Of a stretch of DNA of 64,000 nucleotides, positions 4,059-59,643 are shown one piece after another (position 1 is the first letter of the stretch; every line of letters starts with the position of its first letter). Origin of the DNA: a virus. Lineage: Duplodnaviria; Heunggongvirae; Uroviricota; Caudoviricetes. Below the pieces are notes generated by a model. It had not been told where the DNA came from. It ran no database searches and worked only from the letters and a program-made list of their open reading frames with translations. Where the stretch lies: IMG/VR virus record IMGVR_UViG_2585427757_000006, one strand, 5' to 3'. The position numbers and the translations under genes are program-made.

Positions 4059-6092
4059 TTACTTAACCTGGTGGCCAGGTTTAGCACCAGCATCCGGGCT
4101 TAACAGGAAGATATCTTTCCCCCCGGGGCCAGCAGCCATTACCATGCCTTCGGAGATACCAAAGCGCATTTTACGCGGTGCCAGGTTGGCCACCATAATG
4201 GTGTGACGCCCGATCAGTGCCTGCGGATCTGGGTAGGCAGAACGAATACCGGAGAAGACATTGCGTTTTTCACCACCGAGATCCAGCGTCAGGCGAAGCA
4301 GTTTGTCAGAACCTTCTACAAACTCTGCGTTTTCAATCAGCGCCACGCGCAGGTCAACTTTGGCGAAGTCGTCAAAGGTGATAGTTTCCTGAATCGGGTC
4401 GTCAGCCAGTGGGCCAGTTACCGGTGCGGCTGTGGCTTTCACTTCTTCTTTGGATGCTTCCACCAGTGCTTCAACCTGCTTCATATCGATGCGGTTATAC
4501 AGTGCCTTGAACGGATTCACTTTATGGCCCAGCAGCGGTTGCTGGATACCATCCCAGGTCAGTTCTGTATTCAGGAATGCTTCTGCACGTTCAGTCAGTT
4601 TCGGCAGTACCGGTTTCAGGTACGTCATCAGCACGCGGAACAGGTTAATGCCCATAGAGCAAATCGCCTGCAGATCGGCATCGCGTCCTTCCTGCTTTGC
4701 CACCACCCACGGAGCCTGTTCATCAACATAGCGGTTAGCCAGGTCAGCCAGTGCCATGATTTCACGGATAGCTTTGCCAAATTCGCGGCTTTCCCATGCT
4801 TCGCCAATCACTTCAGCGGCATCAGTAAAGGTTTTGTACAGTTGCGGGTCAGCCAGTTCGCTTGCCAGCACGCCGTCAAAACGCTTGTTGATAAAGCCTG
4901 CATTACGGGAGGCCAGGTTAACCACTTTGTTAACGATATCGGCATTCACACGCTGAACGAAATCTTCCAGGTTGAGATCGATATCATCAATGCGCGAAGA
5001 GAGTTTCGCAGTGTAGTAGTAACGCAGGCTGTCGGCGTCAAAATGATTCAGCCAGGTGCTGGCTTTAATAAAGGTGCCGCGAGACTTGGACATCTTCGCG
5101 CCGTTCACCGTCACATAGCCGTGAACAAACAGGTTGGTCGGCTTGCGGAAGTTGCTGCCTTCCAGCATGGCAGGCCAGAACAGGCTGTGGAAGTAAACGA
5201 TATCTTTGCCGATGAAGTGGTACAGCTCGGCGGTGGAGTCTTTCTTCCAGTATTCGTCGAAGCTGGTAGTGTCGCCGCGTTTGTCGCACAGATTCTTGAA
5301 GGAACCCATGTAGCCAATCGGCGCGTCCAGCCAGACGTAGAAGTATTTGCCCGGTGCGTTCGGAATTTCAAAACCGAAGTAAGGTGCGTCACGGGAGATA
5401 TCCCACTGTTGCAGGCCAGATTCAAACCACTCCTGCATTTTGTTTGCCACCTGCTCCTGCAACGCACCGCTGCGGGTCCATGCCTGCAACATTTCGCTGA
5501 AAGAAGGCAGATCAAAGAAGAAGTGTTCGGAATCACGCATTACCGGTGTAGCGCCAGAAACCACTGATTTCGGCTCGATCAGTTCCGTCGGGCTGTATGT
5601 CGCGCCGCAGACTTCACAGTTATCGCCGTATTGATCCGGCGCTTTACATTTCGGGCATGTGCCTTTTACAAAACGGTCCGGCAGGAACATGCCTTTTTCC
5701 GGGTCGTACAGCTGAGAGATGGTGCGGTTTTTAATAAAACCGTTCTCTTTCAGGCGAGTATAGATAAGCTCGGACAACTGACGGTTCTCTTCGCTGTGCG
5801 TCGAGTGATAGTTGTCATAGCTGATGTTAAAGCCTGCGAAATCAGTCTGATGTTCCTGACTCATTTCGCCAATCATCTGTTCCGGTGTGATACCAAGCTG
5901 CTGTGCTTTCAGCATGATTGGCGTACCGTGGGCATCGTCGGCACAGATGAAATTAACCTCGTGGCCGCGCATTCGCTGGTAACGAACCCAGACATCAGCC
6001 TGGATGTGCTCCAGCATATGGCCGAGGTGGATTGAGCCGTTAGCGTACGGCAGCGCGCACGTCACCAGAATTTTCTTCGCGACTTGGGTCAT
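4059..6092 (-). CDS. metG: methionine--tRNA ligase
   Basis: 677-aa product from [40 protein letters not shown] motif, C-terminal tRNA-binding domain; start trimmed from track ORF to the conserved N-terminus. Confidence 0.95.
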
Positions 6093-6249
6093 AGTAGGCA
6101 TTACTTCTTTGTAGTGAAAAGGGGCTTGATAGTAACAAAATGGCCTTATGTCTGCCATGTGATAACAGCATTTCTCATAAATGATTAAATGTCGTAGCTG
6201 GAGTACACTACAAGGCGACAATTGCGCAAATTAAAATAAAGGAGACGGG

Positions 6250-7350
6250 ATGAGCGAGTCCAAATCGCCGGATGCCCTGAGAGCAATGGTAGCCGGTACG
6301 CTGGCTAATTTTCAGCACCCAACCCTGAAACACAACCTGACTACGCTTAAAGCGTTACACCATGTTGCGTTGATGGATGACACACTGCATGTCGAACTAA
6401 TCATGCCTTTCGTGTGGAATAAGCCTTTTGAAGACCTGAAAGAGCAATGTAGTGGTGATCTGCTCCGTATCACTGGCGCAAAGGCTATTGACTGGAAGCT
6501 GTCGTACAACATTGCCACGCTTAAGCGCGTCAAAAACCAACCAGGCATTAATGGCGTTAAGAACATTATCGCCGTCAGCTCAGGCAAGGGCGGCGTGGGT
6601 AAATCCTCCACGGCGGTAAACCTGGCACTGGCGTTGGCTGCTGAAGGTGCGAAAGTTGGTATTTTGGATGCCGATATCTATGGTCCATCAATTCCAACCA
6701 TGCTGGGCGCGGAAAACCAACGTCCAACCTCACCGGACGGTACTCACATGGCACCTATCATGTCTCATGGCCTGGCAACCAACTCTATTGGTTATCTGGT
6801 CACCGACGACAATGCAATGGTGTGGCGTGGACCGATGGCCAGCAAGGCGCTGATGCAGATGTTGCAGGAAACACTGTGGCCTGATCTGGACTATCTCGTT
6901 CTCGATATGCCACCGGGCACTGGTGATATTCAATTGACGCTGGCGCAGAACATTCCTGTAACTGGTGCGGTTGTGGTAACTACGCCGCAAGACATCGCGC
7001 TGATCGATGCGAAGAAAGGCATTGTGATGTTCGAAAAAGTCGAAGTGCCGGTACTGGGTATCGTTGAAAACATGAGTGTGCATATTTGCAGTAACTGCGG
7101 TCATCACGAGCCAATTTTTGGCACCGGTGGCGCACAGAAACTGGCCGAGAAATACAACACGCAGTTGTTAGGCCAAATGCCACTTCATATCTCTCTTCGT
7201 GAAGATCTGGATAACGGAACACCAACCGTTATTAGTCGTCCAGATAGTGAATTTACGGCTATTTATCGTGACCTCGCAGATCGCGTTGCTGCCCAAATGT
7301 ATTGGCAAGGTGAAGTAATACCTGGCGAAATCGCATTCCGCGCAGTGTGA
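6250..7350 (+). CDS. apbC: Fe-S cluster carrier ATPase ApbC/Mrp
   Basis: P-loop [16 protein letters not shown], CxxC motif CSNCGH, SD ggaga upstream; divergent from metG as in enterobacterial chromosomes. Confidence 0.93.
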
Positions 7351-7357
7351 TAAAAAG

Positions 7358-7486
7358 GTGGTGCTTTTGCCGTTACGCACCCCCCCGTCAGTAGCTGAAC
7401 AGGAGGGACAGCTGATAGAAACAGAAGCCACTGGAGCACCTCAAAAACACCATCATACACTAAATCAGTAAGTTGGCAGCATCACC
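7358..7486 (-). mobile_element. IS1 left-end remnant (inverted repeat plus first about 24 codons of insA), internally truncated
   Basis: Reverse complement reads ggtgatgctgccaacttactgatttagtgtatgatggtg, the IS1 terminal repeat; encoded [24 protein letters not shown] then breaks into apbC 3-prime flank. Confidence 0.8.
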
Positions 7487-8794: not shown

Positions 8795-10480
8795 TCATTT
8801 AACGCGTTTGAAAACGTATACGCTGACTGTGATCCCTGTGTCTTCAAACTCGTTGGTAAACGACTTCCCTCTGGCATAAACGTAATTATCCATCGTCATC
8901 CAGTCCAGTATTGGCGCAGTGCCCGGCAATACTGCTACAAGACGCCCGCCGACTTTCAGATGCCCCAGCGCAGCCAGCGTGTGCTCTCTATGACGACCAA
9001 GCGAGTACGGCGGGTTCATAACGATTTTGTCGAACTGATAACCTGCGTTGTCCTCAGACCACTTTATGAAGTCGCAGCAAATCGTGTTCGTATACCCTTT
9101 TCCACGCAGGATATCAGCGAAGAGAGGTGCGATTTCTATGCAGGTAACATCTTCCAGATCGGCGTCAATATAGGCCAGAAGATCCCCACGTCCGGCTTGA
9201 GGCTCCAACAGCTTCTCACCAGGCTTCAATTCAGTGGCTCTTGCAACGTACTCAGCAATCAAGCGTGGGGTAGGGTAGAACTGGTGTGATTTTGTATCCG
9301 GTATTAAACCGGTAGCCACAATCGTATTTAGCGTATGGCCGATGTCATACGGGAACTGCCAGTGCTTTTTCTCCTGCACGCCGCCAATGAAGCTCAGTGT
9401 GCGCTCAAGCTCTTCCACCTGCGACTTCTGGAGAGCTGAATCAGAGAAGTACCATACACCTTTGTCTTTGCTCAATCGCCCGTCACGAAGCGCAGTGCGA
9501 ACCGGCACGGAGATCGTCTTCTGGATTAAACCGAACTGCTTTGGTGCCCGTGTTTTTGGCGCAGTTCGGCATGGCGCGGGGATTGCAGCAGGCATACTGT
9601 AAGCCAGCACCTCATTCAACTTCCAGGCCACGTCAGGATGTATTTCAAAGTGAACGTTGCCGTTCTTGAACATCTTCACGCGCATCAGATTTCCATCGAC
9701 GTTCATCCAGTCACCGGTCTGGCAGTCGTTTGCCCGATACGCAGCTGATAGCACCTCAGCAGTGCGGTTGATGGTAATAAATTCTTTGTGCGCGAAGAAA
9801 TGAAGCAAGACACGCAGATCGTCGATGTAGTCCTCTTTGCGATAGTTCACGCTAACGCTGTCCCGCCAGAAATCAGAAATGCAGTCAGCGATTATCAGCC
9901 GCTCGCTGAAACCATTTGTCTTATTTGTCTTGTGCACAGGACTCAGCGCCTTAAACAAGCCATACACGCGCTCAGAGAGATATTTGTGCCTGTCATTCAG
10001 CAAATTAAGCATCGTGGGTATGACCGTTTCTGCTTTGAACTCCGGTACACCAACGAACTCTTTAACCTTCATCTGGTAGCCGGTTCTGTCAGTTTTGATG
10101 ACTTCCTGTTTGCCCTCTATAAACTGCTCGCGCCACTCATCTCGACGGGAAGCTGGCATGATCAGCAAAACGTTAGTCATGTCCGTGACCTTCCTCCAGT
10201 ACTCGGCCCAAATATTCTGTTTCACCCATTCCAGATCGACTTTATCCAACCAACCTCGATTTAAACGCGAGCGATCTTCATCTGGTCGATGGTTTAGTCT
10301 CAGCAGGCGATTAATCATGTTGTGGCGTTCGTCGCCATAAACGAAGTCGTGTACCTGATACATGAAGGCGATCTCTTTCTCGCACTCGGCCACAATTTCG
10401 TGGATAACGTTCATTTCCTGACGATAATCGATAGCAGTGTTTGAGCTGGCATCGTCGATGATGGAAAGGGCTGTATTCAT
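8795..10480 (-). CDS. putative SAM-dependent N6-adenine methyltransferase with large N-terminal domain of unknown function
   Basis: C-terminal FYPTP, LEPQAGRGDLL (motif I-like) and NPPY (motif IV) in 561-aa protein. Confidence 0.55.
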   Translation of the reverse strand: MNTALSIIDDASSNTAIDYRQEMNVIHEIVAECEKEIAFMYQVHDFVYGDERHNMINRLLRLNHRPDEDRSRLNRGWLDKVDLEWVKQNIWAEYWRKVTDMTNVLLIMPASRRDEWREQFIEGKQEVIKTDRTGYQMKVKEFVGVPEFKAETVIPTMLNLLNDRHKYLSERVYGLFKALSPVHKTNKTNGFSERLIIADCISDFWRDSVSVNYRKEDYIDDLRVLLHFFAHKEFITINRTAEVLSAAYRANDCQTGDWMNVDGNLMRVKMFKNGNVHFEIHPDVAWKLNEVLAYSMPAAIPAPCRTAPKTRAPKQFGLIQKTISVPVRTALRDGRLSKDKGVWYFSDSALQKSQVEELERTLSFIGGVQEKKHWQFPYDIGHTLNTIVATGLIPDTKSHQFYPTPRLIAEYVARATELKPGEKLLEPQAGRGDLLAYIDADLEDVTCIEIAPLFADILRGKGYTNTICCDFIKWSEDNAGYQFDKIVMNPPYSLGRHREHTLAALGHLKVGGRLVAVLPGTAPILDWMTMDNYVYARGKSFTNEFEDTGITVSVYVFKRVK

Positions 10481-10581
10481 AATTACACCATTAAATAATT
10501 TGTTTTCTGATTGGTGTAATTATCGCAAACTTGAAAAGGCATAAAAGCTGCATTCATAGGCGTTACAGCAGATTTAAGGCG

Positions 10582-10605
10582 TAAAAATGGGGGCTGTCGC
10601 CCCCT
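10582..10605 (-). terminator. rho-independent terminator
   Basis: gggggcgacagccccc hairpin followed by a T-run on the minus strand. Confidence 0.6.
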
Positions 10606-10621
10606 GTCGACTGGTGCTGTA

Positions 10622-11188
10622 TTAGAGTGCGTATTGCGTTTTGTGCGGCTGCTTATTCAAGTCATGGCGATGCGTGAGCTCCCGCATCATGTCTTCAAGG
10701 CGACTCTTTGTGTCGTCGAGCTGGTCGGCCATTGCACCTAAAAGCTGGCGAACGGCCATCGGATCGTCGCTGTTTAGTGATGGCATTTTAGAACCTGCTT
10801 TAGAAGACATAAGGTTGATTGCAGACATCAACATCGTTAGAGAGGATTTAAGCCCGGCAATTTCACGATCTTTGCTGGCAATAATCGTCTCACTTTTGTT
10901 ACCGTCATCAGTTTCTTGAGTCTCGCTCACCATATCCAAAGTCGCTTGCAACTTATCAGCTCTCTCTTTTTCAGCAAGGTAATGAACACCGAAATGGTGT
11001 GCCAAAGCTACAATCTGAGTTGGCTCTTCAAAGGTGGAATTAAAATTAAGTATTGTAAACAGTCTCTCAAATATGGAAACGTCTTCTATTCCTCGAAGAA
11101 TGGCTAACATTTTGACCAGTTCATTAGCATCCATTTCTTCGAATAAGGCGTTTTGTTCATCAGCTATTGCTTTGCATTTCTCGCACAT
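10622..11188 (-). CDS. hypothetical protein
   Basis: 188-aa ORF preceded by motif aaacaagttgttttcttat and an SD. Confidence 0.45.
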   Translation of the reverse strand: MCEKCKAIADEQNALFEEMDANELVKMLAILRGIEDVSIFERLFTILNFNSTFEEPTQIVALAHHFGVHYLAEKERADKLQATLDMVSETQETDDGNKSETIIASKDREIAGLKSSLTMLMSAINLMSSKAGSKMPSLNSDDPMAVRQLLGAMADQLDDTKSRLEDMMRELTHRHDLNKQPHKTQYAL

Positions 11189-11327
11189 GTGTTTTCCTTA
11201 ATGCTTAAACAAGTTGTTTTCTTATTGGTTTTATTGTGATGTGGCATAAAAGGGGAGCAAGCTAAACGTAAAGGTGCAAACTCTCTATTTCGGTCAACGA
11301 AACACAAGGGCCATTTGGCCCTTGTCA

Positions 11328-11486
11328 TTAACACTTTGCTTTACGAACTAACGGATAAGCGAAGTAGATCGCCAAACCAATGAGGACGCCATCAGAAATG
11401 ACAGACATCATCTTTCCCGTAAAATCCACCAACACCGCCATCACCAGAAGAGCAATGACGATCACAAGCCGGAATCTCTCAAGCAT
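11328..11486 (-). CDS. small hydrophobic membrane protein, 52 aa
   Basis: MLERFRLVIVIALLVMAVLV; start overlaps upstream stop in a TAATG arrangement; below the 60-aa track cutoff. Confidence 0.4.
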   Translation of the reverse strand: MLERFRLVIVIALLVMAVLVDFTGKMMSVISDGVLIGLAIYFAYPLVRKAKC

Positions 11487-11911
11487 TAGAGATAAGCATC
11501 CAGTGACAACTGAAGCGCCTGGGCGATCTTTTTCAGTGCCTGCTCTTCTTGTTCACCAATGCCGTCCTGATCGGCAATATCAAGGCACAGACACAGAACA
11601 TCGACCGCCTCTGGAGTACCCGCAATATCAGACAGCTCACGAATAGCCTGTGCATTAGCAGAACGAGGGGACGCTTCGTAACGAGCACGGATATTGGCGC
11701 TCATTTGGGCAATTTCACCAGCAAACGGAGAAAACGCAGGCAGAGCTGCAATTGTCTTCTCAAGAATGGCAATTTCTTTTGCGTCACATGTGCCGTCGGC
11801 ATAGGAGATCATGTACGCGCCCCACACGGTGGCCTCAACCGCATCACGGTTCTCCATTTTTTTGACTTCGATAACTGCTTTACGAGTTTTCTTTTTGAAG
11901 AAACCTAACAT
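11486..11911 (-). CDS. TerB-like domain protein
   Basis: Two DG-x-E repeats (YADGTCDAKEIAIL and IADQDGIGEQEEQALKKIA) resembling tellurite-resistance TerB. Confidence 0.45.
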   Translation of the reverse strand: MLGFFKKKTRKAVIEVKKMENRDAVEATVWGAYMISYADGTCDAKEIAILEKTIAALPAFSPFAGEIAQMSANIRARYEASPRSANAQAIRELSDIAGTPEAVDVLCLCLDIADQDGIGEQEEQALKKIAQALQLSLDAYL

Positions 11912-12004
11912 GTGTTTTCCTTTTGTTATTTGTCAAAACAAGTTGTTTTCTAGTTAAATAAATTGCTTACGCAAAGACGGTCAATGCATATGTACTAACA
12001 ACCG

Positions 12005-12193
12005 TCAGAAATAACCAAGTACCGAACCGACTGGAAAAATAAAAATCCCAACTACACGAGCCAAGGTCATGCCAGCCTGAAACTGGAGATCGCCAGAGCA
12101 AACAAGTTTTATAATGTTCGATACCCAACCGGCGGCCATGAGGGCAAGAATTGCCAGCCAAATTTTTCCAAAGTGATTTGAAAACCAGTTCAT
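12005..12193 (-). CDS. small membrane protein
   Basis: 62-aa ORF with two hydrophobic segments. Confidence 0.35.
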   Translation of the reverse strand: MNWFSNHFGKIWLAILALMAAGWVSNIIKLVCSGDLQFQAGMTLARVVGIFIFPVGSVLGYF

Positions 12194-12202
12194 ACAACCG
12201 CC

Positions 12203-12697
12203 TTAGTCACAGCATGATCCTGAGTAACTGGATGAACTTGAGGTATCGCATCCACCGCCATCCCATCCAGAGTGACAGGACGCTCCACTGGAGTGGTGGT
12301 AATTGTCGTCGACGAAGGTGTGGTGGTGGATGAATCCGGCATCAAAAGGCTCTGACCGGCTGGAACGGCTACCGTCGCCAGTGAAACTATAATGAGAACG
12401 TAGGCCATTGGTTTCAGCCTCTTTCTTTGAAAATTTTCCATTCGAACTGTCCTTGTTGTTTTTCTCCTTCACTAAAGGCCGTGCATTTTTCGCTTCGCGT
12501 GAAGAACCAGAGGCAACAATCGCCCCCATGTTCGCAACAACTGACGCTTGATTATCTAAACGTTCATTCAGCAACCGAACGGTAGTCTCTAGTTCATCAA
12601 GGCGTGACATAACACGACCGCTAAATAATTCGGCCAAAATTTGACGTAAAGAACGAGGACGTTTAGTTACAGAAGTGAAATAGGTTTGACGTGCCAT
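12203..12697 (-). CDS. hypothetical protein
   Basis: 164-aa ORF, Ser/Gly/Cys-rich C-terminus. Confidence 0.4.
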   Translation of the reverse strand: MARQTYFTSVTKRPRSLRQILAELFSGRVMSRLDELETTVRLLNERLDNQASVVANMGAIVASGSSREAKNARPLVKEKNNKDSSNGKFSKKEAETNGLRSHYSFTGDGSRSSRSEPFDAGFIHHHTFVDDNYHHSSGASCHSGWDGGGCDTSSSSSYSGSCCD

Positions 12698-12845
12698 GTG
12701 GACTCCATCCAGTGTCAGAAAGAGTTGCGGCTGGCGATTGCCAGCCGCTTTTCTCGTTCCATCCTGGAACTGTGTCTTACCGACACATTGTCATCCTGAC
12801 GCCGATAAGATACATGATTTAAAATGATAGGTAAACACTTACTTA

Positions 12846-13436
12846 CTATTTGTTATAAACAAAACCAATATCTTTCTTGTGAGGCATATCTGCTGCTGAA
12901 AAAGCTGCGATCTTCGCGAGTCGATCACATATTTCATTTTCACGATGCCCGGCGTGACCTTTAACCCACTTCCAGCGAACATTATGTCGACTTGCGGCCT
13001 CATCCAGACGCTTCCACAGATCAACATTCTTTACCGGTTTTTTGTCAGAAGTCATCCATCCATTGCGTTTCCACCATTTCATCCACTGTGTCATGCCGTT
13101 TTTCAGATACTGGCTATCAGAGTGCAAAATAACGTTGCATGGATATTTCAAACGCTCCAGCCCGATAAGTGCCCCCATCATCTCCATGCGGTTATTGGTG
13201 GTGCTATGAAAACCATCTGAGAACTCGCGTTCCTCACCACGATACTGGAGAACGATACCGTAACCGCCCGGGCCACCCGGATTTTTAAGGCAAGAGCCAT
13301 CACTAAAGATTTTCACGGTTTTAAGCTGGGGATTGAACTCTACGACAGGCGTTGTGGGATTGGTGCGGGGGGAATTTTTGTTTTTGGCTTTTTTGCGAGT
13401 TTTTGCTTGCGATCGGGCTGGTGTCTTCGTCGTCAT
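12846..13436 (-). CDS. rnhA: ribonuclease H (RnhA-like)
   Basis: [34 protein letters not shown] motifs; start set at MTTKT with SD aggag; basic N-terminal extension. Confidence 0.85.
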
Positions 13437-14018
13437 ATAAACTCCTGAATCAAGCGCCGCGCCGATTTTTCCTCGCGCGTGCGCACACGCGTGCGTGTTA
13501 ATAATTATTAAAATAAACAAATTACTTCCCAGAACAGGTTTTTATAAACCTGAACTGAACGAACGAAGTGAGTGAAGTTCACCTCGAACGAAGTGAGAGG
13601 TTGTCTTTTCAGGTAATACTCTCCCAGGGAGGTGAGTATAAAAATCTCTCACCAACCTGGTCGTTTCATAACCTGAAAAGTTATGGTCTAAGTCTACTGC
13701 CAGCTTAGACTTGGGAAGTTATGGATGACAGCACCCCAGAACCGAGATCTTCCCACACTTTATGAAGGGGAGTACTGGATTCAACCTCTCGAAACACCCC
13801 AGACTCGACAATCATAAAGTGACCCTTGTCTCTGCTCACTTTGGTTCCCCCTTCCCCGACACCTAAACGGCACCAGTTCTACGCTGGTAGTGAGCTTTTT
13901 TAAACCTGACGCCAGTGACGCTTACCCCCACCCATCAGGTCGAGTCTCCAGTCTACGACTGGAAACTATCAGATCTTAGCACTTACAATTCACTTTATGA
14001 ATAGTTTGTACTTATCTA

Positions 14019-14273
14019 TCATTGTGATTGATTATTTTCTCTACCATGTAGTTGAACATTCAAGGCAAACACCTCATTGATCAACTCACCTAAAAGCTGT
14101 TCAACAAGTTCGCGATGCTCGCCAAGATGCAAGCACTTAATTGCCCATTCGTACAAGTTGAAAGCCTGCTCACGATCTTTCATCATTTCACGAGCCTGGG
14201 CCAGAAAATCGCTCTCTACGAGCGCAACGACATTAGTCGGGTATGACATGTTGGTTTCCTTAAAGTGGTTCAT
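14019..14273 (-). CDS. hypothetical protein
   Basis: 84-aa ORF. Confidence 0.35.
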   Translation of the reverse strand: MNHFKETNMSYPTNVVALVESDFLAQAREMMKDREQAFNLYEWAIKCLHLGEHRELVEQLLGELINEVFALNVQLHGRENNQSQ

Positions 14274-14434
14274 AAAATCGATTTTAAAGCGTCTGCGAAG
14301 GGGTTCTAGTGGATTCTGTAGTTATGTTCAGGTCTGGAGTCTCTGATACAAAACAGCCTTCTTCCGTATATTAATAATTAATATGTAGTTATTTATATAT
14401 ACAGAAGCAGGCTAATTACAGACACCAGAACAAA

Positions 14435-15028
14435 CTAAGCAGCCTTCTTTGATGGTCTTTTTTTCCTGATCACATTCGCAGGATCATACCCTCCCAGACT
14501 TTTCATGACGTCCAAAGGGATCTTGCTTATAGAGTGCCCAGCGTCCTGACAGAATCCTCGAAAAACAACGAGCATACTGCCACCCGGGTTGATGTTTACT
14601 TCTACCTGACCCAGATTTACGTCAGGCTCGACAAACGCTACGCGGCCACCAGACAGAATAATCGTCTCATTCGCACACTCTGTTGCACGCTCATACCACT
14701 TTGTATCTAGGGATTGAGGAATTAGCATCACTGTTGTACCCCCGCGAGCCTGCTCACGTATAGCCGCATCAATCCAGGGGTAGATTTTGGAGTAGGGTGG
14801 ATTGAGGAAGGCAATTGTACCTGGCTGTCCCCATTCAGATTTCAAAGCATCACGCTCAACGCCTATGAAATTAGGCAGCTTTGCATTGTCCTTGTTGCAG
14901 GCAACGTCAACATCAAATGTCACTCCAAGATAACGTTGAATGGCAGAAAACAGCCAGTCAGGTGTTCTCCAGAGGTCACGAAGAGAGTTGTCACGCTTTC
15001 GCTGTTTGATTTTTTCGGCTGCAATCAT
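14435..15028 (-). CDS. phage-type N6-adenine DNA methyltransferase (Dam-like)
   Basis: WRTPDWLF and FLNPPYS motifs characteristic of the phage N6A methylase family. Confidence 0.75.
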   Translation of the reverse strand: MIAAEKIKQRKRDNSLRDLWRTPDWLFSAIQRYLGVTFDVDVACNKDNAKLPNFIGVERDALKSEWGQPGTIAFLNPPYSKIYPWIDAAIREQARGGTTVMLIPQSLDTKWYERATECANETIILSGGRVAFVEPDVNLGQVEVNINPGGSMLVVFRGFCQDAGHSISKIPLDVMKSLGGYDPANVIRKKRPSKKAA

Positions 15029-15211
15029 CTTCTTTCTCGATAGGTAAGTAAATACCTATTTTTGCATTTGATTTTATGTCTGGCAATCAAATAAAACGCG
15101 CCAGAAATGCAAACGAGAAGCTCTCTGGCGCGTTTTTGTGGTGCTGGGTATGTGATTGACTTACCCAGTACTATAAAGCTCTCTATGGGCTTTATTTTAA
15201 GTAGGGGAACG

Positions 15212-17227: not shown

Positions 17228-17872
17228 CTAATGAACGGTCACTCGGCCACAGAACCGGTTTTCTATCTTTTCTACAGCGTTATCTAGCATTCTCATCACT
17301 GATCTGGCTCTTGCTTCAACTGTGCGATACCGGTTGGAAACGACGAAGGTTTGCAGATCTCCCCTTTGCGGATGCAGGTGAATTTTTGTCAGTTCCCCGC
17401 ACATCAACGCATCAATACGAGCGACATACAGACGGTCTAATGATGCTCGTTGTAACCGCAAGTAATCTCGCTCTGAGAGAGCGACCCCCGGGCGTAGGCC
17501 AGCAATGGCGTTAAAGTTTGAAATAGCAGTTTTGTGGCAAAACTTTTCGATATCGAGGGCTAACTCAATACACCGATCTTCATTTGTATGGCCGACCAAA
17601 TCCAACGTGTAGGCCATAACATCAGCAGGTGTGCGATCGATAACAAAGCCTTCAGCACCACGCGTAAGTAGCTCTATATGCTTTGCGATTTCCATTTGAA
17701 TCTGAAGCCGCTCATATAGAGGCATAGAATCACCTACTCGAACACCGAGGCGGCTCATCAAACTTCCGACACCAGCATCCACGTAAGGGATTCCGTAATG
17801 TTTGTCGATATATTTAGCCAGGGTTGTTTTCCCACTGCCCTGAGCACCAGTGATCCCAATCCGGTAATCCAT
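17228..17872 (-). CDS. P-loop nucleotide kinase (deoxynucleoside monophosphate kinase-like)
   Basis: Walker A GITGAQGSGKTT at N-terminus; located in nucleotide-metabolism block. Confidence 0.5.
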   Translation of the reverse strand: MDYRIGITGAQGSGKTTLAKYIDKHYGIPYVDAGVGSLMSRLGVRVGDSMPLYERLQIQMEIAKHIELLTRGAEGFVIDRTPADVMAYTLDLVGHTNEDRCIELALDIEKFCHKTAISNFNAIAGLRPGVALSERDYLRLQRASLDRLYVARIDALMCGELTKIHLHPQRGDLQTFVVSNRYRTVEARARSVMRMLDNAVEKIENRFCGRVTVH

Positions 17873-18348
17873 TACGACCTTCTGTATACGATCTGCGAAA
17901 AGCCAGGCTCTTCCTCGCTGGCTCGTTGGGTATAAGCTGTTTCAACAGGCACAAAGCCTAAATTACGCATCATGCTTGCCGGGAAGAATGCATCGGCGTT
18001 TGGCACATCAACGCCGATGTGGGAGAGCCAAATCTCTTCAACATGCGGCATGAATAGCGAGTAAATTTGTTCCCCGCCAATCACCCACACAGGCTCTGGT
18101 AATCGCAACACATCATCCACACCAGCAGGGTAGAATCCATTTGGTACAAAGCCATGAGAGCGCGTCAAAACGAGGTTATGACGCTCTGGAAGAGGGCGTT
18201 TGAGACTTTCCATCGTTTTACGCCCCATAACGACAGTGGCGTTTTTGGTGAGTCTCTTAAATAGCTTCAGATCGGTAGAACAACGCCAGGGCAGTTCGTT
18301 CGCTATGCCGATTTCATAGTTACGGCCAACAGCAGCTATCATCTTCAT
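17872..18348 (-). CDS. folA: dihydrofolate reductase
   Basis: MIAAVGRNYEIG, LPWRCSTDLKLFK, VVMGRKTMESL, VIGGEQIY resemble DHFR. Confidence 0.85.
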   Translation of the reverse strand: MKMIAAVGRNYEIGIANELPWRCSTDLKLFKRLTKNATVVMGRKTMESLKRPLPERHNLVLTRSHGFVPNGFYPAGVDDVLRLPEPVWVIGGEQIYSLFMPHVEEIWLSHIGVDVPNADAFFPASMMRNLGFVPVETAYTQRASEEEPGFSQIVYRRS

Positions 18349-18758
18349 TTGCTCACCTCATAGATGACCGGTCTATGATGAGAGTCAGCTAAAGCGGCAC
18401 GGAGTCGAGGATCGTGCACCAGCGCAGCGATAAGCAGATCGCCTTTATGCTCCGCTAATGTGCGCTTAATATGCTTCTCATAACTAGTGCTATTCGGTAC
18501 GAGGTGAAGCCAGTCGTAATCAACACCAAAATCTTTCAGCCATCGTTTAGTGGGCGCTTCAAGAGTTTCAGAGCGGCTACTGATAAGCACCACTTCAGCC
18601 CCTGAGCGAGCAAAACCACGCAACATACGGCTGGTGGGGAAAATGAGTTCATCACCGGCAATGAATTGGCCTGCATCCGAGTCAGATACAGATTTACGAT
18701 GGCTGGTATTTGCCAGCACACCTTCAATTTCGCATAAGACATACATACCTCTTGCCAT
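18345..18758 (-). CDS. HAD/5-prime-nucleotidase-like protein with atypical motif I
   Basis: VLCEIEGVLAN aligns to nucleotidase DMDGVLAD scaffold but with C-x-E in place of D-x-D; start set at MARGM, one nucleotide after thyA stop. Confidence 0.35.
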   Translation of the reverse strand: MARGMYVLCEIEGVLANTSHRKSVSDSDAGQFIAGDELIFPTSRMLRGFARSGAEVVLISSRSETLEAPTKRWLKDFGVDYDWLHLVPNSTSYEKHIKRTLAEHKGDLLIAALVHDPRLRAALADSHHRPVIYEVSK

Positions 18759-18759
18759 A

Positions 18760-19890
18760 TCACACCGCCACTGGAACCTTGATCCACGGTAGAGGGGCAT
18801 AGCCAAGAATAAGAATCTCGTCCCATTTGAAATCATCCAGCTCAGACCATTCATTAGGGAATATAACGACCGGATCTGAATGCTCTGGAGCCTGTCGTTG
18901 CATTAGCTCACACACACCTTCCATGTGGTTGTTGTACAAATGCACGTCAAAGCCAAAATGCACAAATGCACCGGCCATGTGACCCGTAATCTTCGCGAGA
19001 AAATGAGTGAGAATGCCATAGCCAGCAATATTGAATGGCATACCAACAAAAGTGTCTACGCTACGCTGTACGAGGCAGGAGTTGAGGATGCGTTTGGGGA
19101 TTCCAAGTTCATCCAGTTCAGCTTCAGTAACACTGCCGTCTATCTCCAGATCGTATAGCATCTTGGTGTAGATAGACTCGTAACCGAGGCGACTGTGTTG
19201 AAGACCAATGTCAGTTGCCATCGTTAAACGGGTTTCAAAATCCAGCTCACGACTCCACAAAGAGAAGACAAAGTGGCAAGGTGGCAGTTTCATATCCTCA
19301 AGCTCGCCTACGTTCCATGCGTTAAGCATGATGCGACGATCGGTAGGGTTCGTGCGCAGTGTATCGACAATACGCTGTAGCTGATCGATTTCACGGGACA
19401 GCACTACGCGATCTTCACTGATACCCAGGTATCCCTCGACTTTGTACCCGCGTTCACGGAAAGTAGCGATCTTGCTCAGATATTCACTATGGCTCACGAT
19501 GCGGGTATCTTCCCATCGACGCCACTGCTTACCGTAAACCGGCCCCAAATCGCCATTCTCATCGGCCCATGCATCCCAAATCTTAACGCCGTTATCCTTG
19601 AGAAATTGGATGTTGCCCGTGCCTTTCAGATACCACTCAAGTTCGACAAGCAGTGGCTTAAGATTTACCGCCTTTCCAGAAATAAGCGGCACAGTCCCAC
19701 CAGTAAGCATGTAGTAAGAGGGAACGTAGCAGGTGCTTAAAGTACCAGTGCCTGTGCGATCATCAGCCTGCACGCCGCTTTTAAGCACCGTCTCAATAAC
19801 TTTTGCATACGATGCGTTTGTTACCTGACCGTTCGTATGCTCACGATTCAAAAGGAGTGACACAAAAACCTCACAAAGATAAGTAACCAC
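18760..19890 (-). CDS. thyA: thymidylate synthase with two internal insertions; start codon uncertain
   Basis: DRTGTGTLS, WADENGDLGPVYGKQWR, RRIMLNAWNVGE, PPCH, MPFNIAGY, C-terminal PLPWIKVPVAV; track ORF begins at a GTG. Confidence 0.85.
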   Translation of the reverse strand: MVTYLCEVFVSLLLNREHTNGQVTNASYAKVIETVLKSGVQADDRTGTGTLSTCYVPSYYMLTGGTVPLISGKAVNLKPLLVELEWYLKGTGNIQFLKDNGVKIWDAWADENGDLGPVYGKQWRRWEDTRIVSHSEYLSKIATFRERGYKVEGYLGISEDRVVLSREIDQLQRIVDTLRTNPTDRRIMLNAWNVGELEDMKLPPCHFVFSLWSRELDFETRLTMATDIGLQHSRLGYESIYTKMLYDLEIDGSVTEAELDELGIPKRILNSCLVQRSVDTFVGMPFNIAGYGILTHFLAKITGHMAGAFVHFGFDVHLYNNHMEGVCELMQRQAPEHSDPVVIFPNEWSELDDFKWDEILILGYAPLPWIKVPVAV

Positions 19891-19927
19891 TTATTCATTG
19901 CGTGAGTTTACATTTATTGAGAGAACA

Positions 19928-19955
19928 AGACCAGACAGATAAAAAAATGGTGGCC
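19928..19955 (-). terminator. rho-independent terminator
   Basis: tggtggcc-loop-ggccacca hairpin followed by seven T on the minus strand. Confidence 0.6.
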
Positions 19956-20034
19956 ATAGGCCACCAAAAACGAATAGTTGTTTCAGAAATTTAACGCGCC
20001 AGCGCAATATACACAGATAGATAACTACCTACAA

Positions 20035-20904
20035 TTATTTTTTGATCATTCCGTACATTGCTGAGGCTTTAGCTTGCTCAACAAAGGAGGATAAATCGAC
20101 ATCACTATAGGTTGGAGACTTCAGAATCTTTCCATCGGAAATTCGAAAACCGATCATCTTATCGGTGCCATCAGCATGGCGAAATCCCAGGTCAGAAGAG
20201 TCGTATTTGCAGTTGGCCACAGCATGGCGACGCTCTTCGGCATCTGCAGGCCATAATTTTGTCATGTTGGACCGATGAATTTCGCCAACCAGCTCGACGA
20301 CATTGATACCGAGAAAATCAGCCAGTCGATAAGTCATCATGCACGCCACATAGATTTTGTTCATTACACGGCGCAGTTCCTGAATCAGCTCAGAATCCTT
20401 AACAGTCTTCTTCTCAAGTTTATCTGCCAGCTCTTCGAGCATACATGACGCCTCACGAGCTTCCTGAAATGGCATTGCCATATCATCGAAAACAGTGTTA
20501 CCAGGCACAAAAATTGTCTGCATAAAGCGATCAATGCTCTGTTCCTGCGTGTAATAAGTCATGCCGGTAGAAATACCACCTTTGATGGCGACCATCGTAC
20601 CAACACCAACGTATAAAAAGTCGGCCATTGCATCCAGCAGTTGCTCAATATCCCCATTCATTGCGGCTGGAATACCTTCCACTACAGCTTCTTCATGAAT
20701 CAGGCTTGCACGGAGACGAAGCAGCTCTGGTGTCGGCATAACGCGTCTCGGATGCTGGAAGAGTTCATGAAACTGATCGACCATCTTGTAAATACTTTCA
20801 GTGGCTACACCATGGCCTTCATGCAACTCATATGGTTCTGGCTTAAATCCAATGAGTCGATCGGTGGCAAGTTTCAGGTGGTCAGTCAGTTTGGTAAAGT
20901 TCAT
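20035..20904 (-). CDS. hypothetical protein, possibly MazG/HisE-like nucleotide pyrophosphohydrolase
   Basis: 289-aa ORF between thyA and nrdB; acidic helical EE-x-D pattern only weakly suggestive. Confidence 0.3.
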   Translation of the reverse strand: MNFTKLTDHLKLATDRLIGFKPEPYELHEGHGVATESIYKMVDQFHELFQHPRRVMPTPELLRLRASLIHEEAVVEGIPAAMNGDIEQLLDAMADFLYVGVGTMVAIKGGISTGMTYYTQEQSIDRFMQTIFVPGNTVFDDMAMPFQEAREASCMLEELADKLEKKTVKDSELIQELRRVMNKIYVACMMTYRLADFLGINVVELVGEIHRSNMTKLWPADAEERRHAVANCKYDSSDLGFRHADGTDKMIGFRISDGKILKSPTYSDVDLSSFVEQAKASAMYGMIKK

Positions 20905-20981
20905 GCTAGTTTTGCTCCTTCTTAATTCTTGTGATCCATTGTGGCCCAGCGTTGCCAGGCCACATAATGCTTTGTATCGGT

Positions 20982-22124
20982 TTACAGGTCTGCAAACTGG
21001 CTTAGAGAAGCCTTATCCACGGTAGAATCGATCTGACCTACCAGATATGTGCTTTGCTCTGCCTCTTGTGGTGCAATTTGCAGTGTGTCGGTTAACAACC
21101 ACTTGTTCATCCAGACCAGCGGATCAGTGGTAACTTCTGGAAATAAAGCCTTCAGGCCAAGACGATTCATAGCCAGATTGGTGCGGTATTTTACATAGGT
21201 TTTGAGAATATCCGCGTTTAAACCAATCATCGAACCGTCTTTGAAGAGATAGTCTGCCCAGTTCATTTCTTGTTCGGCGACTGATTTCATGGTGTCGTAA
21301 ATGACGTTTTCTTCATCAGCAGCAATCTCTTTCCACAATAAACCTTCGCGACCGGTACGCATGAAGCGGATCATGCGTTCAGTTCCTTCGCAATGCAGAG
21401 CTTCATCACGGGCAATAAAGCGCATAATTTTGGTGTTACCCTCAAGCAACTTCCGTTCACCAAAGGCAAACGTACATGCAAAACTTACGTAGAAACGGAT
21501 CGCCTCAAGCGCATTAATGGACACCAACGTGCGGAAAAGCTGACGATGCAAAGGGTATGGCTCCCAGCCATATTCATTTACGTACAGACGCTCAAATTCC
21601 TTCTCACCTAACGACTGGCGCTCGCAGGTCATCCCATAAAGCCTGTCATATTCAGCAGAGATACTGATCGCTCGGTTGATGATTTCTTCATCCGTAACAA
21701 TGCCGTCAAAAACAATGCTCGGATCGTCCACCATGCCACGAATAATGTGGGTGTAGCTGCGGCTATGGATAGTCTCAGAGAAAGACCACGTTTCAACCCA
21801 CGTTTCCAGTTCAGGAATAGAGATAAGCGGCAGCAGCGTTGCATTTGGACTACGTCCCTGAACTGAATCGAGTAACGTTTGATAACGGAGATTGCTCAGA
21901 AAAATGTGACGTTCGTGGTCCCGCAGCTTCGTGTTGAAGTCGATACGATCGCTCGAAATATCAACTTCTTCCGGCCGCCAGAAGAAAGACAATTGACGTT
22001 CAATCAACTTTTCAAAATCACGGTATTTTTGCTGATCGTAACGTGCCACGTTGACAGATTGTCCGAGGAACATAGGCTCTTTGGTTGCATCATTAGCACC
22101 CAAACGGAACGTTGAATATGACAT
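20982..22124 (-). CDS. nrdB: ribonucleotide reductase class Ia beta subunit
   Basis: Diiron ligand pattern incl. EAIRFYVSF and ARDEALH; C-terminal tail; 380 aa. Confidence 0.9.
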
Positions 22125-22189
22125 GTGTTTTTCCTTTTTCTTTTTTGGTGCGTTTAAACAAGTTGTTATCTTATGTGTTTAAACAAGGC

Positions 22190-22225
22190 TTACAAATCAA
22201 AGAGAAGGTGGGGATATCCCCCACC
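22190..22225 (-). terminator. rho-independent terminator between nrdA and nrdB
   Basis: ggtggggatatcccccacc hairpin followed by a T-rich run on the minus strand. Confidence 0.55.
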
Positions 22226-22230
22226 ATATG

Positions 22231-24546
22231 TCAGATTTTGCAGGCTCCGTCGCACTCATCTTCTGGCTCGACGGCTACAGCTTGCGCCAGTGGATTCTGC
22301 GGTTCGTCGTCATCACGCTTTCCTGCACCATCTCTGGTGTTGTGGTAGTAAAGCGTTTTAACTCCCATCTTGTAGGCGAGAAGCAAATCTGACAGTAGCG
22401 TCATCATTGGGACTTTATCGCCTTCAAAGCGAGAAGGGTCATAGTTGGTATTGGCTGAAATAGCCTGGTCAAAGAACTTCTGGATGATCGCCACCTTTGT
22501 CAGATAGCCGCGGTTGTCCGGCATATCCCACAGGTATTCATACTGTTCCTTCAGTTTTTCAAACTCAGGCACGACCATCTTAACGATGCCGTCCTTAGAA
22601 GATTTCACCGACACCGGGCCACGAGGCGGTTCGATGCCGTTGGTGGAATTAGTGATCTGGCTGGAAGTCTCGCATGGCATTTGTGCCGTCAGTGTGGAGT
22701 TGCGAAGGCCGTATTTTGCAATACGTTCACGCAGTTCTTCCCACGGCATCTTTAACTCAAAGTTGGTTTCGCCACTTTCGTCTAATGAAGAACGGTAATG
22801 GTCGATCGGCAACTGACCAATTGCGTATTTGGTCTGCTCAAACCAGTCACACTCACCTTTTGCTTCAGCAAGTCGGCAGCTGGCATCAAGAAGGTAATAC
22901 TGGATAGCTTCGAATGTTTCATGCACCAGTTTATTGCCAGCGGTATCAGAATAACGAACGCCATTCTTTGCCAGGTAATAAGCAAAGTTGGTTACACCAA
23001 TTCCCAAGCTACGACGAGCTTTGGCAGGCACTTCGGCTGCCTCCATCGGATAGTCTTGATAATCCAGTAACGAATCCAGTGCAGCAACGGCATAGAACGC
23101 CACCTCTTTAAGAGACTCCAGTGAACGGATGGCTCCGAGGTTAAAAGCGGATAAAGTGCATAGCGCGATCTCACCGTTCGGGTCGTCGGTAAATGCCAGT
23201 GGACGGGTGGGTAGGGTGATCTCCATACACAGGTTTGACTGGCGGACAGGTGCAAGAGCAGGAATGAAAGCGCCATGCTCATTAATATGATCGACGTTCG
23301 CAATATAAATTCGGCCCGTGGACGCTCGTTCCTGCATCAGAGATGAGAACAGCTCAATGGCAGGTACTGACTTCTTGCGAATTGAATCATCGGCTTCGTA
23401 TTTATGGTACAGCTTTTCAAACAGCTCCTGGTCTGTGAAGAAGGCTTCGTACATATCAGGCACATCATGCGGGCTGAACAGAGTGATGTTCTCGCTTCTG
23501 ACGAGTCGACGGTACATTAGACGGTTACTCATGACGCCGTAATCAAGATGGCGAACGCGGTTTTCATCAATACCACGGTTATTTTTCACCACCAGCAGAC
23601 TTTCAACTTCAAGATGCCAGATCGGGTAAAACGCTGTTGCTGCGCCACCACGAACACCACCTTGCGAACAAGATTTAACAGCCGTCTGGAAATGCTTCAG
23701 GAATGGAATAACTCCGGTATGGGTGGCTTCACCATTGCGGATCTCGCTGCCCAGCGCACGGATACGGCCAAAACCAATACCAATTCCAGCACGACGTGAA
23801 ACGTAGTCGATAATTGCGGCTGAAGCTGCACTAATCCCTTTCAGACTATCGCCAGACTCAATCAGCACACAACTGGAGAACTGACGGGTTGGAGTACGGA
23901 CGCCGGCCATGATTGGTGTGGGCAGAGACAGTTTGAACGTACTTGTAACGTCATAGAAACCTTTGACCATCTCCATACGTGTTTTGCCAGCGCAGTCGTC
24001 TTCCCAATTCTGGAACAGACACATGCCTACCAGCATATAGATATGTTGCGGCCCCTCATGAATCTCACCAGTAACACGGTTTTGAACGAGGTATTTGCTT
24101 TGCAACTGCACCGTAGCTGCATAGCCAAAAAGATCGTCACGTTTCGGCTTAATGTAATTGCCGAGTTCTTCGATCTCTTCAAACGAATAATGTGTCAGCA
24201 AATCCTTGTCATAAACGCCCTTGTTAACGTTCTTGACAATGTGTTGGTAGAAGTTCGGATAGTCGTAACGACCGAAGGCATCTTTGCGGATTTTAAAAAT
24301 GTTCAGGCGGGCAGCCACCTGTGAGTAATTTGGTGCTTCTGGTGAGATCAAATCAGCGGCAGATTTAACCAAAGCCTCATGCAACTGGCTGGTGGTCATC
24401 CCATCAAAAATGCTGGCCGCAGCTCCCATTGCTACAGCGGATGCGCTTACACCACGAATGCCTTCTACGCCATACATTACGACGCGGTTGTATTTTTCTT
24501 CGGATAACGGCTCTGTTTGGCCGTTACGTTTTACGATGCTTATCAT
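22231..24546 (-). CDS. nrdA: ribonucleotide reductase class Ia alpha subunit
   Basis: 771 aa; N-terminal ATP-cone MISIVKRNGQTEPL, catalytic NLCMEI and C-terminal CxxC tail. Confidence 0.9.
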   Translation of the reverse strand: MISIVKRNGQTEPLSEEKYNRVVMYGVEGIRGVSASAVAMGAAASIFDGMTTSQLHEALVKSAADLISPEAPNYSQVAARLNIFKIRKDAFGRYDYPNFYQHIVKNVNKGVYDKDLLTHYSFEEIEELGNYIKPKRDDLFGYAATVQLQSKYLVQNRVTGEIHEGPQHIYMLVGMCLFQNWEDDCAGKTRMEMVKGFYDVTSTFKLSLPTPIMAGVRTPTRQFSSCVLIESGDSLKGISAASAAIIDYVSRRAGIGIGFGRIRALGSEIRNGEATHTGVIPFLKHFQTAVKSCSQGGVRGGAATAFYPIWHLEVESLLVVKNNRGIDENRVRHLDYGVMSNRLMYRRLVRSENITLFSPHDVPDMYEAFFTDQELFEKLYHKYEADDSIRKKSVPAIELFSSLMQERASTGRIYIANVDHINEHGAFIPALAPVRQSNLCMEITLPTRPLAFTDDPNGEIALCTLSAFNLGAIRSLESLKEVAFYAVAALDSLLDYQDYPMEAAEVPAKARRSLGIGVTNFAYYLAKNGVRYSDTAGNKLVHETFEAIQYYLLDASCRLAEAKGECDWFEQTKYAIGQLPIDHYRSSLDESGETNFELKMPWEELRERIAKYGLRNSTLTAQMPCETSSQITNSTNGIEPPRGPVSVKSSKDGIVKMVVPEFEKLKEQYEYLWDMPDNRGYLTKVAIIQKFFDQAISANTNYDPSRFEGDKVPMMTLLSDLLLAYKMGVKTLYYHNTRDGAGKRDDDEPQNPLAQAVAVEPEDECDGACKI

Positions 24547-30140: not shown

Positions 30141-30365
30141 TTATTCACATATCCACAGGATAGATCCTAATAAAGAGATCCATAGATAGATCCTTATATA
30201 GATCAAATAAGATCCCCGATCGCTGTAAGCCGCGCCACGACTGGTCTGAAGTCATGTTCATGTATGCTGTCAGCGGTAATTGATAGTCTGTCAGCGGTTC
30301 ACCGTATGCTGCCAACTGTTTTTGGTATTCTGTCAGCGGCAAATCAAGTATGCTGTCAGCGGTTG
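30141..30365 (+). promoter_or_regulatory. plasmid replication origin (oriR-like): DnaA-box-like 9-mers, GATC cluster, five iterons
   Basis: ttattcaca and atatccaca 9-mers; six GATC within 30160-30222 in agatcc heptamers; five copies of atgctgtcagcggt-like iteron up to the repA SD. Confidence 0.75.
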
Positions 30366-30383
30366 AATGACAAAGGTGTCCAC

Positions 30384-31478
30384 ATGTCCACAAAAAATAA
30401 AAAAGGTAAAAATAACAAAGAAGTAGAAGATAACATCGACAACTTTGAAGAAGGTTCCCTTGAATTGTACACAGGGGAACTTGTCCCTAATAGCAACAAT
30501 ACAGTCCAACCAATTGCGTTGATGCGACTGGGGTTGTTCGTCCCCACGCTTAAGGGAACAAAATACAGTAAACGTAACAAGCCAAATGAGATCGATGCTT
30601 CAAAGGAGCTTGTCCAGCTCGAAGTAGCCCGTTCTGAAGGCTATTCCGATATCAAGATAACCGGTCCTCGTCTCGACATGGATCATGATTTCAAAACGTG
30701 GGTGGGCGTTGTGCGTTCGCTGGCAGAATACGGCGAACCTAACGGTCGTGTCGAGTTAAGCATCACGAAATTTGCGAAGTTTTGTGGCTATCCATCGTCA
30801 CAGATCCGCAAAACACTCCGCGACCGGCTTACAAACAGTCTTTTGAAGATCATGCGTACAACTCTGTCTTTCCAGAGAACGTATGAAGAAAAGAACGTCG
30901 ACGGCTCTAACAAGATCTCGCTTCTGATGGTGCACCTCATCAATAGCGTGGACTACAACGAGCAGAAAGATACGGTGGTGTTCTATGCAGAACCGAAGCT
31001 GGCCGAACTATATCGCTTTGACCATAAGGTTCTTTTGCAGTTAAAGGTTATCAATAAGCTACCACGCAAAGAAACAGCACAGGCTCTGTACACCTTCATC
31101 GAAAGTCTTCCAACCAAGCCTGCGCCGGTATCGCTTGCTCGATTGCGTGCGCGACTCAATTTGAGTAGCAGGAATGTCAGCTCGCAGAATCAGACTATAC
31201 GTAACGGCTTAAAAGCTCTCCAAGATTTGGGCTATCTCGAATACAGCGAGATTAAGCGTGGGCGGTCGATCTATATCCAGATTCACAGCCGCAATCCAAA
31301 ACTCAAAGTCGCACCGCCAAAACCTGAAGACATCGAACCCAAAAAACCAGATGAGAAAGCCGGGGAAATTGATGCCAAACAGAACATTATCAATAAGATA
31401 ACCGAACTTTCGCAGAATTTGACGCCTGAAAATATCAAGATGATTGAGATCCTTTCCAATAGTCTCAAACTGCTTTGA
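30384..31478 (+). CDS. repA: iteron-binding replication initiator RepA (P1/RepFIB-like)
   Basis: NSNNTVQPIALMRLGLFVP, GYSDIKITGPRLDMDHDFKTW, YTFIESLP, HSRNPKLK resemble P1-type RepA; start set at MSTKN with SD aggtg; track ORF 5-prime part is read-through of iterons. Confidence 0.85.
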   Translation: MSTKNKKGKNNKEVEDNIDNFEEGSLELYTGELVPNSNNTVQPIALMRLGLFVPTLKGTKYSKRNKPNEIDASKELVQLEVARSEGYSDIKITGPRLDMDHDFKTWVGVVRSLAEYGEPNGRVELSITKFAKFCGYPSSQIRKTLRDRLTNSLLKIMRTTLSFQRTYEEKNVDGSNKISLLMVHLINSVDYNEQKDTVVFYAEPKLAELYRFDHKVLLQLKVINKLPRKETAQALYTFIESLPTKPAPVSLARLRARLNLSSRNVSSQNQTIRNGLKALQDLGYLEYSEIKRGRSIYIQIHSRNPKLKVAPPKPEDIEPKKPDEKAGEIDAKQNIINKITELSQNLTPENIKMIEILSNSLKLL

Positions 31479-32010: not shown

Positions 32011-32057
32011 GACGACTATGAAATATGACTGCGGAACGTGCCGCAGTCAGTTTGCAT

Positions 32058-33159: not shown

Positions 33160-36994
<3,835 letters not shown>

Positions 36995-59547: not shown

Positions 59548-59551
59548 AATT

Positions 59552-59638: not shown

Positions 59639-59643
59639 TAAAT

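Follow-up and report, generated by a model that had tools for sequence, protein, structure and literature searches.

Why does one mobile element carry two adenine methylases, and what do they mark? The question is posed by two minus-strand genes in a 64,000-nucleotide stretch of viral DNA (IMG/VR record IMGVR_UViG_2585427757_000006, Caudoviricetes; called here the window), which an earlier note made from the letters alone had picked out as two distinct adenine-methylase candidates. Their open reading frames (ORFs) lie exactly where that note had put them, at 8795-10480 (ATG start, 561 residues) and 14435-15028 (ATG start, 197 residues). The distinction between them also stands: the small protein belongs to a curated methylase family, and the large one has all the amino-methyltransferase motifs and a fold most like that of DNA N6-methyladenine (m6A) enzymes. 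We consider it probable that the window belongs to an SSU5/pHCM2-type phage-plasmid with two independent orphan DNA N6-adenine methyltransferases, the small one acting on GATC and the large one placing a second m6A mark.

A phage Dam-family methylase predicted to act on GATC

The small protein, the orthologue of SSU5_088 of Salmonella phage SSU5, matches the Pfam family Dam (PF05869) with an E-value of 3e-38 and 131.7 bits (curated cutoff 28.1), and the NCBIfam equivalog model TIGR01712 (phage_N6A_met) with 114.8 bits (cutoff 97.05). Both scores exceed their curated cutoffs and bear out the earlier description of a compact phage-type Dam-like methylase; the protein also matches PHROG 111. It carries WRTP at residue 20, FDVDVA at residue 38 and NPPYS at residues 76-80, with NPPY itself at residues 76-79 (nt 14792-14803). 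Identity is 39% to VT2-Sakai orf32 and 25% to T1 Dam, and in an alignment of the three proteins the motifs WxTP, DxDxA, NPPYS and GRxxF are invariant. Judged by its sequence, the small protein is a genuine member of the phage Dam family.

M.EcoVT2Dam and M.EcoT1Dam have been reported to methylate GATC, and a third phage Dam member, 35% identical to T1 Dam, methylates GATC with some off-target activity (PMC6602927, PMC4996451). Because the two characterised members are as distant from one another as they are from the small protein and nevertheless share GATC, this is the economical prediction, and GATC is the likely target of the small enzyme. M.EcoVT2Dam and M.EcoT1Dam resemble it in being compact, in having no separate recognition domain and in being the products of orphan genes in the early regions of phages. 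The small protein differs in a 20-residue basic C-terminal tail that is missing from VT2 orf32, and its gene resides on a phage-plasmid, not on a phage that integrates or is virulent; GATC as its specificity is predicted from sequence. Membership of the non-specific enzymes Hia5 and Hin1523 in the small Dam family was considered and rejected: they are 281-residue DPPY enzymes related to EcoKDam (PMC3299994), and are therefore uninformative about the specificity of the small protein.

A gamma-class methylase core at the C-terminus of the large protein

The large protein, the orthologue of SSU5_095, ends in a minimal gamma-type N6-amino-methyltransferase core (residues 396-561; 8798-9295, minus strand). 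Within it FYPTP (residue 401) and LEPQAGRGD (residue 425) are followed by NPPY at residues 489-492 (nt 9005-9016), confirming the C-terminal NPPY methylase domain described before. Motifs X, I and IV (NPPY) occur in this linear order on a Rossmann fold, the arrangement that characterises the gamma class; the AlphaFold2 model of the protein was built from 28 homologues and has a mean predicted local distance difference test score (pLDDT) of 82. Residues 403-494 align with M.TaqI over motifs X, I and IV (phmmer), and PHROG 6263, named 'DNA methyltransferase', matches the protein from end to end. PADLOC models also match (mad2, 2e-15; Type II methyltransferase, 3e-10), with all matches confined to the methylase core and none on the region preceding it. 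Conservation was assessed in 138 homologues representing the family, which are only 28-35% identical to the query; the core residues Q400, E426, G430, N489, P491, H500 and P519 are invariant among them. Similarity to the core was also seen in segments of several giant phage proteins that are unnamed in PHROGs.

In structural comparison the highest sequence identities of the large protein are to CamA (27%) and M.TaqI (25%), and the enzymes closest to its core, M.TaqI, M.BseCI and CamA, all make m6A in DNA. From these relationships we infer that DNA is the substrate of the large enzyme. It departs from the gamma-class enzymes M.TaqI, M.BseCI, CamA and HsdM in having no C-terminal recognition domain, since the final core strand closes the chain at residue 561, in carrying a 390-residue N-terminal module for which no fold relative was detected, and in matching Pfam N6_Mtase below threshold. 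Pfam Eco57I likewise falls short (12.2 bits against a gathering threshold of 25.3).

Two further comparisons were made with enzymes of mobile elements. M.EcoGIX and M.BceJIII are single-strand-specific methylases of plasmid leading regions that are thought to protect entering DNA (PMC7736820). Like the large protein they are orphan m6A methylases on mobile elements, and the nearest stand-alone relative of the large-protein core is also found in an IncF leading region. The element in the window differs in being typed as non-mobilizable, and a sequence relationship was not found; kinship with M.EcoGIX was rejected, as M.EcoGIX is a beta-class enzyme with DPPY (PMC7736820) and the large protein has gamma order with NPPY. 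A relation to DarB of P1 was not supported either: tblastn showed no close match of the large protein in the P1 family, all four Escherichia phage records among its matches being SSU5-like elements at 95-99%.

The DUF4942 module, probably in place of a recognition domain

The N-terminal region of the large protein had been called unassigned. Its centre, residues 140-295, is covered by Pfam DUF4942 (PF13708; E-value 6e-20, 72.2 bits against a gathering threshold of 25), so that a family name can now be given; the description holds to the extent that this family carries no functional assignment of its own. The module divides into three parts. Residues 1-90 (10211-10480, minus strand) form a variable helical segment, as seen in AlphaFold2 models and in high column entropy, with long helices at residues 20-62 and low pLDDT at residues 1-18 and 72-77. 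Residues 91-305 (9566-10210, minus strand) constitute the conserved DUF4942 core. Residues 306-395 (9296-9565, minus strand) make up a small alpha/beta sub-domain by AlphaFold2 secondary structure, and identity comparison marks it as the most variable part of the protein: identity there is 22-36% where the flanks stay at about 50%. This sub-domain is a candidate target-recognition element.

A profile of the N-terminal module recovered 1,611 cluster representatives, 420 of them at E<1e-30. Nearly all of the best 150 of the 1,611 are 510-580 residues long and have the module at residues 1-390; because these representatives are so uniform in length and module position, the fusion of the module to a core of about 165 residues is a fixed two-part architecture. 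A profile search of Protein Data Bank sequences found no relative of the module among solved structures, and comparison with the recognition domains of the HsdS encoded in the window showed no similarity (hhalign probability 0.3%). We likewise found no structural or experimental precedent for a DUF4942 module. In the conservation set the invariant residues of the module are W95, L179, S180, H183, T185, N186, I196, D221, W258, H277, N289 and L292.

Two mosaic homologues (P0044 and P0045) indicate how the parts have moved. Over residues 1-305 they share about 90% identity with the E. coli type, against only about 50% over residues 306-561, where they are of the Klebsiella type; the pattern suggests recombination where the DUF4942 core gives way to the variable sub-domain. 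Residues 306-395 recombine jointly with the catalytic core in these proteins. This would suit a division of labour in which the variable sub-domain and the core together are the specificity-bearing unit, with the conserved DUF4942 core serving a purpose shared by all members, perhaps clamping DNA, handling the base or contacting a partner.

An SSU5/pHCM2-type phage-plasmid and its relatives

At the DNA level the 1,686-bp ORF of the large methylase shares 99.8% identity with a gene of the 113-kb E. coli plasmid pM160133_p3, where the product is named 'DUF4942 domain-containing protein', and it has matches in 251 complete E. coli genomes, nearly all of them plasmid-borne. In a comparison of annotations the neighbourhood on pM160133_p3 equals that in the window gene by gene: metG, apbC, the DUF4942 protein, a TerB-like protein, RNase HI, the phage N6-adenine methyltransferase, a 3'-5' exonuclease, DfrA51, thymidylate synthase and NrdAB. 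The same block is present in Salmonella phage SSU5. On account of this near-identity and of the matching SSU5 block, the window is assigned to an SSU5/pHCM2-type phage-plasmid of E. coli.

SSU5_095 (92% identical to the large protein) and SSU5_088 stand in the same order as their orthologues and share the neighbours RNase HI, 3'-5' exonuclease and dihydrofolate reductase (DHFR); on pHCM2 of S. Typhi the large-gene orthologue is named 'YdiA'. The E. coli element differs from SSU5 in having TerB and DUF3927 genes at the place of an Ant gene, and in carrying metG-apbC and a Type I restriction-modification (R-M) locus that are mostly missing from SSU5-type relatives. Both methylase genes have previously been annotated, in SSU5 as DNA methyltransferases and also in hundreds of RefSeq plasmids. 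At an identity of at least 60%, the large methylase is found in 846 plasmids and the small one in 720; 766 of 783 plasmid records with the small methylase are typed non-mobilizable, and those listed are mostly 105-115 kb in size. Literature on methyltransferases of SSU5 phage-plasmids or pHCM2 yielded nothing relevant by title or abstract.

Homologues of the large protein elsewhere keep similar company. In Aeromonas phage 2_D05 the homologue lies in the nin region between Ant and NinG, the classical site of lambdoid orphan methylases. On an IncHI2 plasmid a Dam-family methylase lies 1.8 kb away, a Variovorax prophage has an N6_N4 methylase right next to the homologue, and an Enterobacterales prophage has it between N6_N4 and C5 methylases, after the cI, cro and replication genes. 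The stand-alone relative nearest to the core, a 187-residue methylase, belongs to the IncF leading region, where its gene has an antirestriction gene on one side and ssb/psiB on the other. The two prophages and the IncHI2 plasmid, with their DUF4942-methylases beside other orphan methylases, are loci L009 (8001-10936), L011 (4948-12320) and L002 (3560-7844). These contexts suggest recurrent 'methylase clusters' on mobile elements; as the pairing of a DUF4942-methylase with an orphan methylase recurs and is not specific to the window, it fits the joint evasion of several restriction specificities. The gene tables listed no nuclease-family gene beside the homologues examined, many of whose neighbours have no family assignment.

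The large gene can also be lost. On K. pneumoniae plasmid p187-1 (NZ_CP025467.1, locus L007, 5001-5216) the gene has been cut to a 71-residue remnant whose first 62 residues match, and the remainder of the locus is a Type I R-M system (hsdR, hsdS, hsdM). The large-methylase locus is thus a site of defence and anti-defence turnover. The idea that the first 62 residues form a portable module was rejected for p187-1, the one plasmid examined, where the match is a gene remnant. This remnant is mis-annotated as 'restriction endonuclease subunit M', and similar short N-terminal matches occur on other Klebsiella plasmids and in phage vB_KpnS_p4727.

A P1-like origin with clustered GATC

The earlier note had tied the methylases to a GATC-rich origin. 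Such an origin is present on the plus strand at 30141-30368: two DnaA-box-like sites (30141 and 30149) are followed, just upstream of repA, by six GATC in 60 bp (30163-30221), five of them within AGATC(C/A) repeats, and by five iterons GTATGCTGTCAGCGG (30262-30368). The repA gene (Rep_3) is called at 30264-31478, and about ten further iterons extend from 31478 to 32015. Because the called ORF begins inside the first iteron block, the true repA start is probably further downstream. The GATC density of the origin was equalled in 9 of 5000 random placements, and GATC is not enriched over the window as a whole (observed/expected 1.11).

The elements follow one another as in P1 oriR (DnaA boxes, GATC heptamers, incC iterons, repA, incA iterons), with iterons on both sides of repA. 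Function of P1 oriR and pac depends on GATC methylation. The present origin differs from P1 in that its RepA matches Rep_3 weakly (E-value 5e-9), and dependence on methylation would here be by analogy. A role of the small methylase at the origin is a reasonable suggestion on this analogy, although host Dam would normally suffice for methylating the origin GATC. Both roles envisaged in the earlier note, anti-restriction and control of the origin, would appear plausible.

Two proposed marks and their probable use

How might the two enzymes serve the element? As we picture it, both would be restriction-less genes within a long leftward array for DNA metabolism. The small enzyme, having no target-recognition domain, would most likely produce G(m6A)TC and keep the GATC sites of the element methylated whatever the level of host Dam. 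Its targets would include the P1-like GATC cluster beside the DnaA boxes of the origin, and the methylation would also block GATC-sensitive restriction. In the large enzyme a gamma-class m6A core would be joined to the N-terminal module (helical arm, conserved DUF4942 core and variable small sub-domain), which would substitute for the missing C-terminal recognition domain and most likely hold and select the DNA substrate. The element would thereby receive, besides the first, another kind of m6A mark, one protecting it against restriction by the host on entry or during replication.

Several observations weigh against this account. A GATC enzyme is redundant in E. coli, because this host already has Dam, and the large gene appears dispensable for plasmid maintenance, because only a remnant of it is left in p187-1. 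The best Pfam match of the large-protein core, N6_Mtase, stays under threshold (18.4 against 20.4 bits). The invariant polar set of the N-terminal module (S180, H183, T185, N186, D221, H277 and N289) resembles an active or ligand site more than a variable recognition domain, and the papers that mention DUF4942 do so only incidentally.

A different reading of the large protein is that it is bifunctional. The DUF4942 core would then have catalytic activity of its own, either as a metal-dependent nuclease, say, which would make the protein a single-chain R-M enzyme, or in some other modification of DNA. Residues S180, H183, T185, N186, D221, D262, H277 and N289 are kept across homologues of low identity, a strand-turn-strand-helix at residues 266-295 bears H277, E279, H281 and N289, and the record of phage Dolphis labels its homologue 'RE endonuclease'. 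As regards a Type IIG R-M enzyme, no nuclease family in Pfam or PADLOC matched the large protein, which also has no C-terminal domain; a weak match to PADLOC REase_MTase_IIG (E-value 0.0012) is limited to the methylase core. We regard a second catalytic activity as unlikely. That the large protein methylates RNA or protein instead of DNA, in the manner of METTL5, KsgA/Erm or HemK, is more unlikely still. The earlier note had named a protein or RNA methyltransferase, HemK-like for example, as the outcome that would refute its reading, and the evidence runs the other way: the top sequence-model matches are DNA methylases, sequence identity in structural comparison is highest to M.TaqI and CamA, and the family occurs in phage, prophage and plasmid settings, in early or anti-defence contexts beside DNA methylases and anti-restriction genes. 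No PrmC/HemK model of NCBIfam or Pfam matched at E <=0.01, and the sole HemK-type match, PRK14968, reached 18.3 bits against a cutoff of 243.

It could also be that both methylases mainly regulate the life cycle of the element itself, through origin firing or sequestration, use of the packaging site or gene expression, with P1 as the model. A P1-like origin whose cluster of six GATC adjoins DnaA boxes and iterons would suit this, as would the retention of both genes in most relatives (720-846 plasmids). Yet the window shows no further enrichment of GATC, methylation of GATC is already supplied by host Dam, and the large enzyme would be left without a role; such regulation is moreover compatible with anti-restriction marking, not exclusive of it. 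As the principal purpose of the two enzymes we judge it improbable, and two independent orphan marks, one at GATC and one set by the large enzyme, remain the explanation we prefer.

On that explanation the finding is an ordinary one, as several orphan methylases per element are a familiar strategy of phages and plasmids against restriction. Clinical E. coli, Salmonella and Klebsiella commonly harbour SSU5/pHCM2-type phage-plasmids, whose range of accessible hosts will depend in part on their methylation marks. The chief point of interest is the function of the DUF4942 module, which defines a large, well-conserved and easily clonable family borne by mobile elements. We tentatively raise a further possibility, and would not yet bet on it: DUF4942-methyltransferases may represent an architecture not yet described among the DNA methylases of mobile elements, in which an N-terminal module of novel fold with an invariant His/Asp/Asn/Ser/Thr site replaces the recognition domain, and may act as a widespread anti-restriction device. 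If this were true, the module might let the enzyme methylate entering DNA in a relaxed, structure-specific or strand-specific manner, or might add a second catalytic function, and the anti-restriction family would span about 1,600 protein clusters in phages, phage-plasmids, IncHI2 plasmids and genomic islands.

Transcription of the methylase genes

The two methylase genes had been placed in the same operon series. They do lie in one co-directional array, on the same strand and 4 kb apart; seven ORFs and several terminator-like hairpins intervene. On the minus strand these hairpins are at 12748-12727, 11325-11304 and 10604-10589. The last of them, GGGGGCGACAGCCCCC followed by ATTTTT, is directly upstream of the large gene, and an extended -10-like sequence, TGCGATAAT (10519-10527, minus strand), comes after it. 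Upstream of the small gene, at 15089-15132 (minus strand), a GC-rich hairpin (CGCGCCAGA ... TCTGGCGCG) runs into the T-run TTTTATTT; downstream of this hairpin a scan found a promoter-like TTGCCA-17-AAAAAT with TG (15086-15058, minus strand). All these terminator-like and promoter-like elements are consensus matches, and their function is putative. Since hairpins and promoter-like sites precede each gene, the large and small methylases are probably separate transcription units with their own promoters rather than parts of one operon.

The Type I locus and other cargo

A third methylase gene in the window, the hsdM that the earlier note had called resident, is real: it lies on the minus strand at 39462-41927 and matches Pfam N6_Mtase and HsdM_N. 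It is, however, no standing feature of this family of elements. With it are hsdS (38182-39462) and hsdR (33977-36994), both identified by Pfam, and between these two a DUF4268 gene (37009-38172) that matches the PADLOC candidate defence family PDC-S11 with an E-value of 1e-182; an ORF with an insertion sequence (IS) integrase core (33276-33962) flanks the locus. Only 27 plasmids cover at least 80% of the Type I locus, as against the 846 and 720 that carry the large and small methylases, and the locus is therefore accessory cargo, present in few relatives. The hsdM methylase protects against, and serves, its own hsdR.

The window further contains, at 4059-7431, a full methionyl-tRNA synthetase gene, metG (minus strand), and apbC/mrp (6250-7350, plus strand), which look like captured chromosomal housekeeping genes; on pM160133_p3 a fragment of an IS1 transposase gene comes after metG/apbC. 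A nucleotide-metabolism block spans 17872-24546, for which pM160133_p3 gives the labels trimethoprim-resistant DHFR DfrA51, thymidylate synthase, NrdB and NrdA. A cluster of four tRNA genes (Ser-TGA, Thr-TGT, Tyr-GTA and Asn-GTT) lies on the minus strand at 59161-59718.

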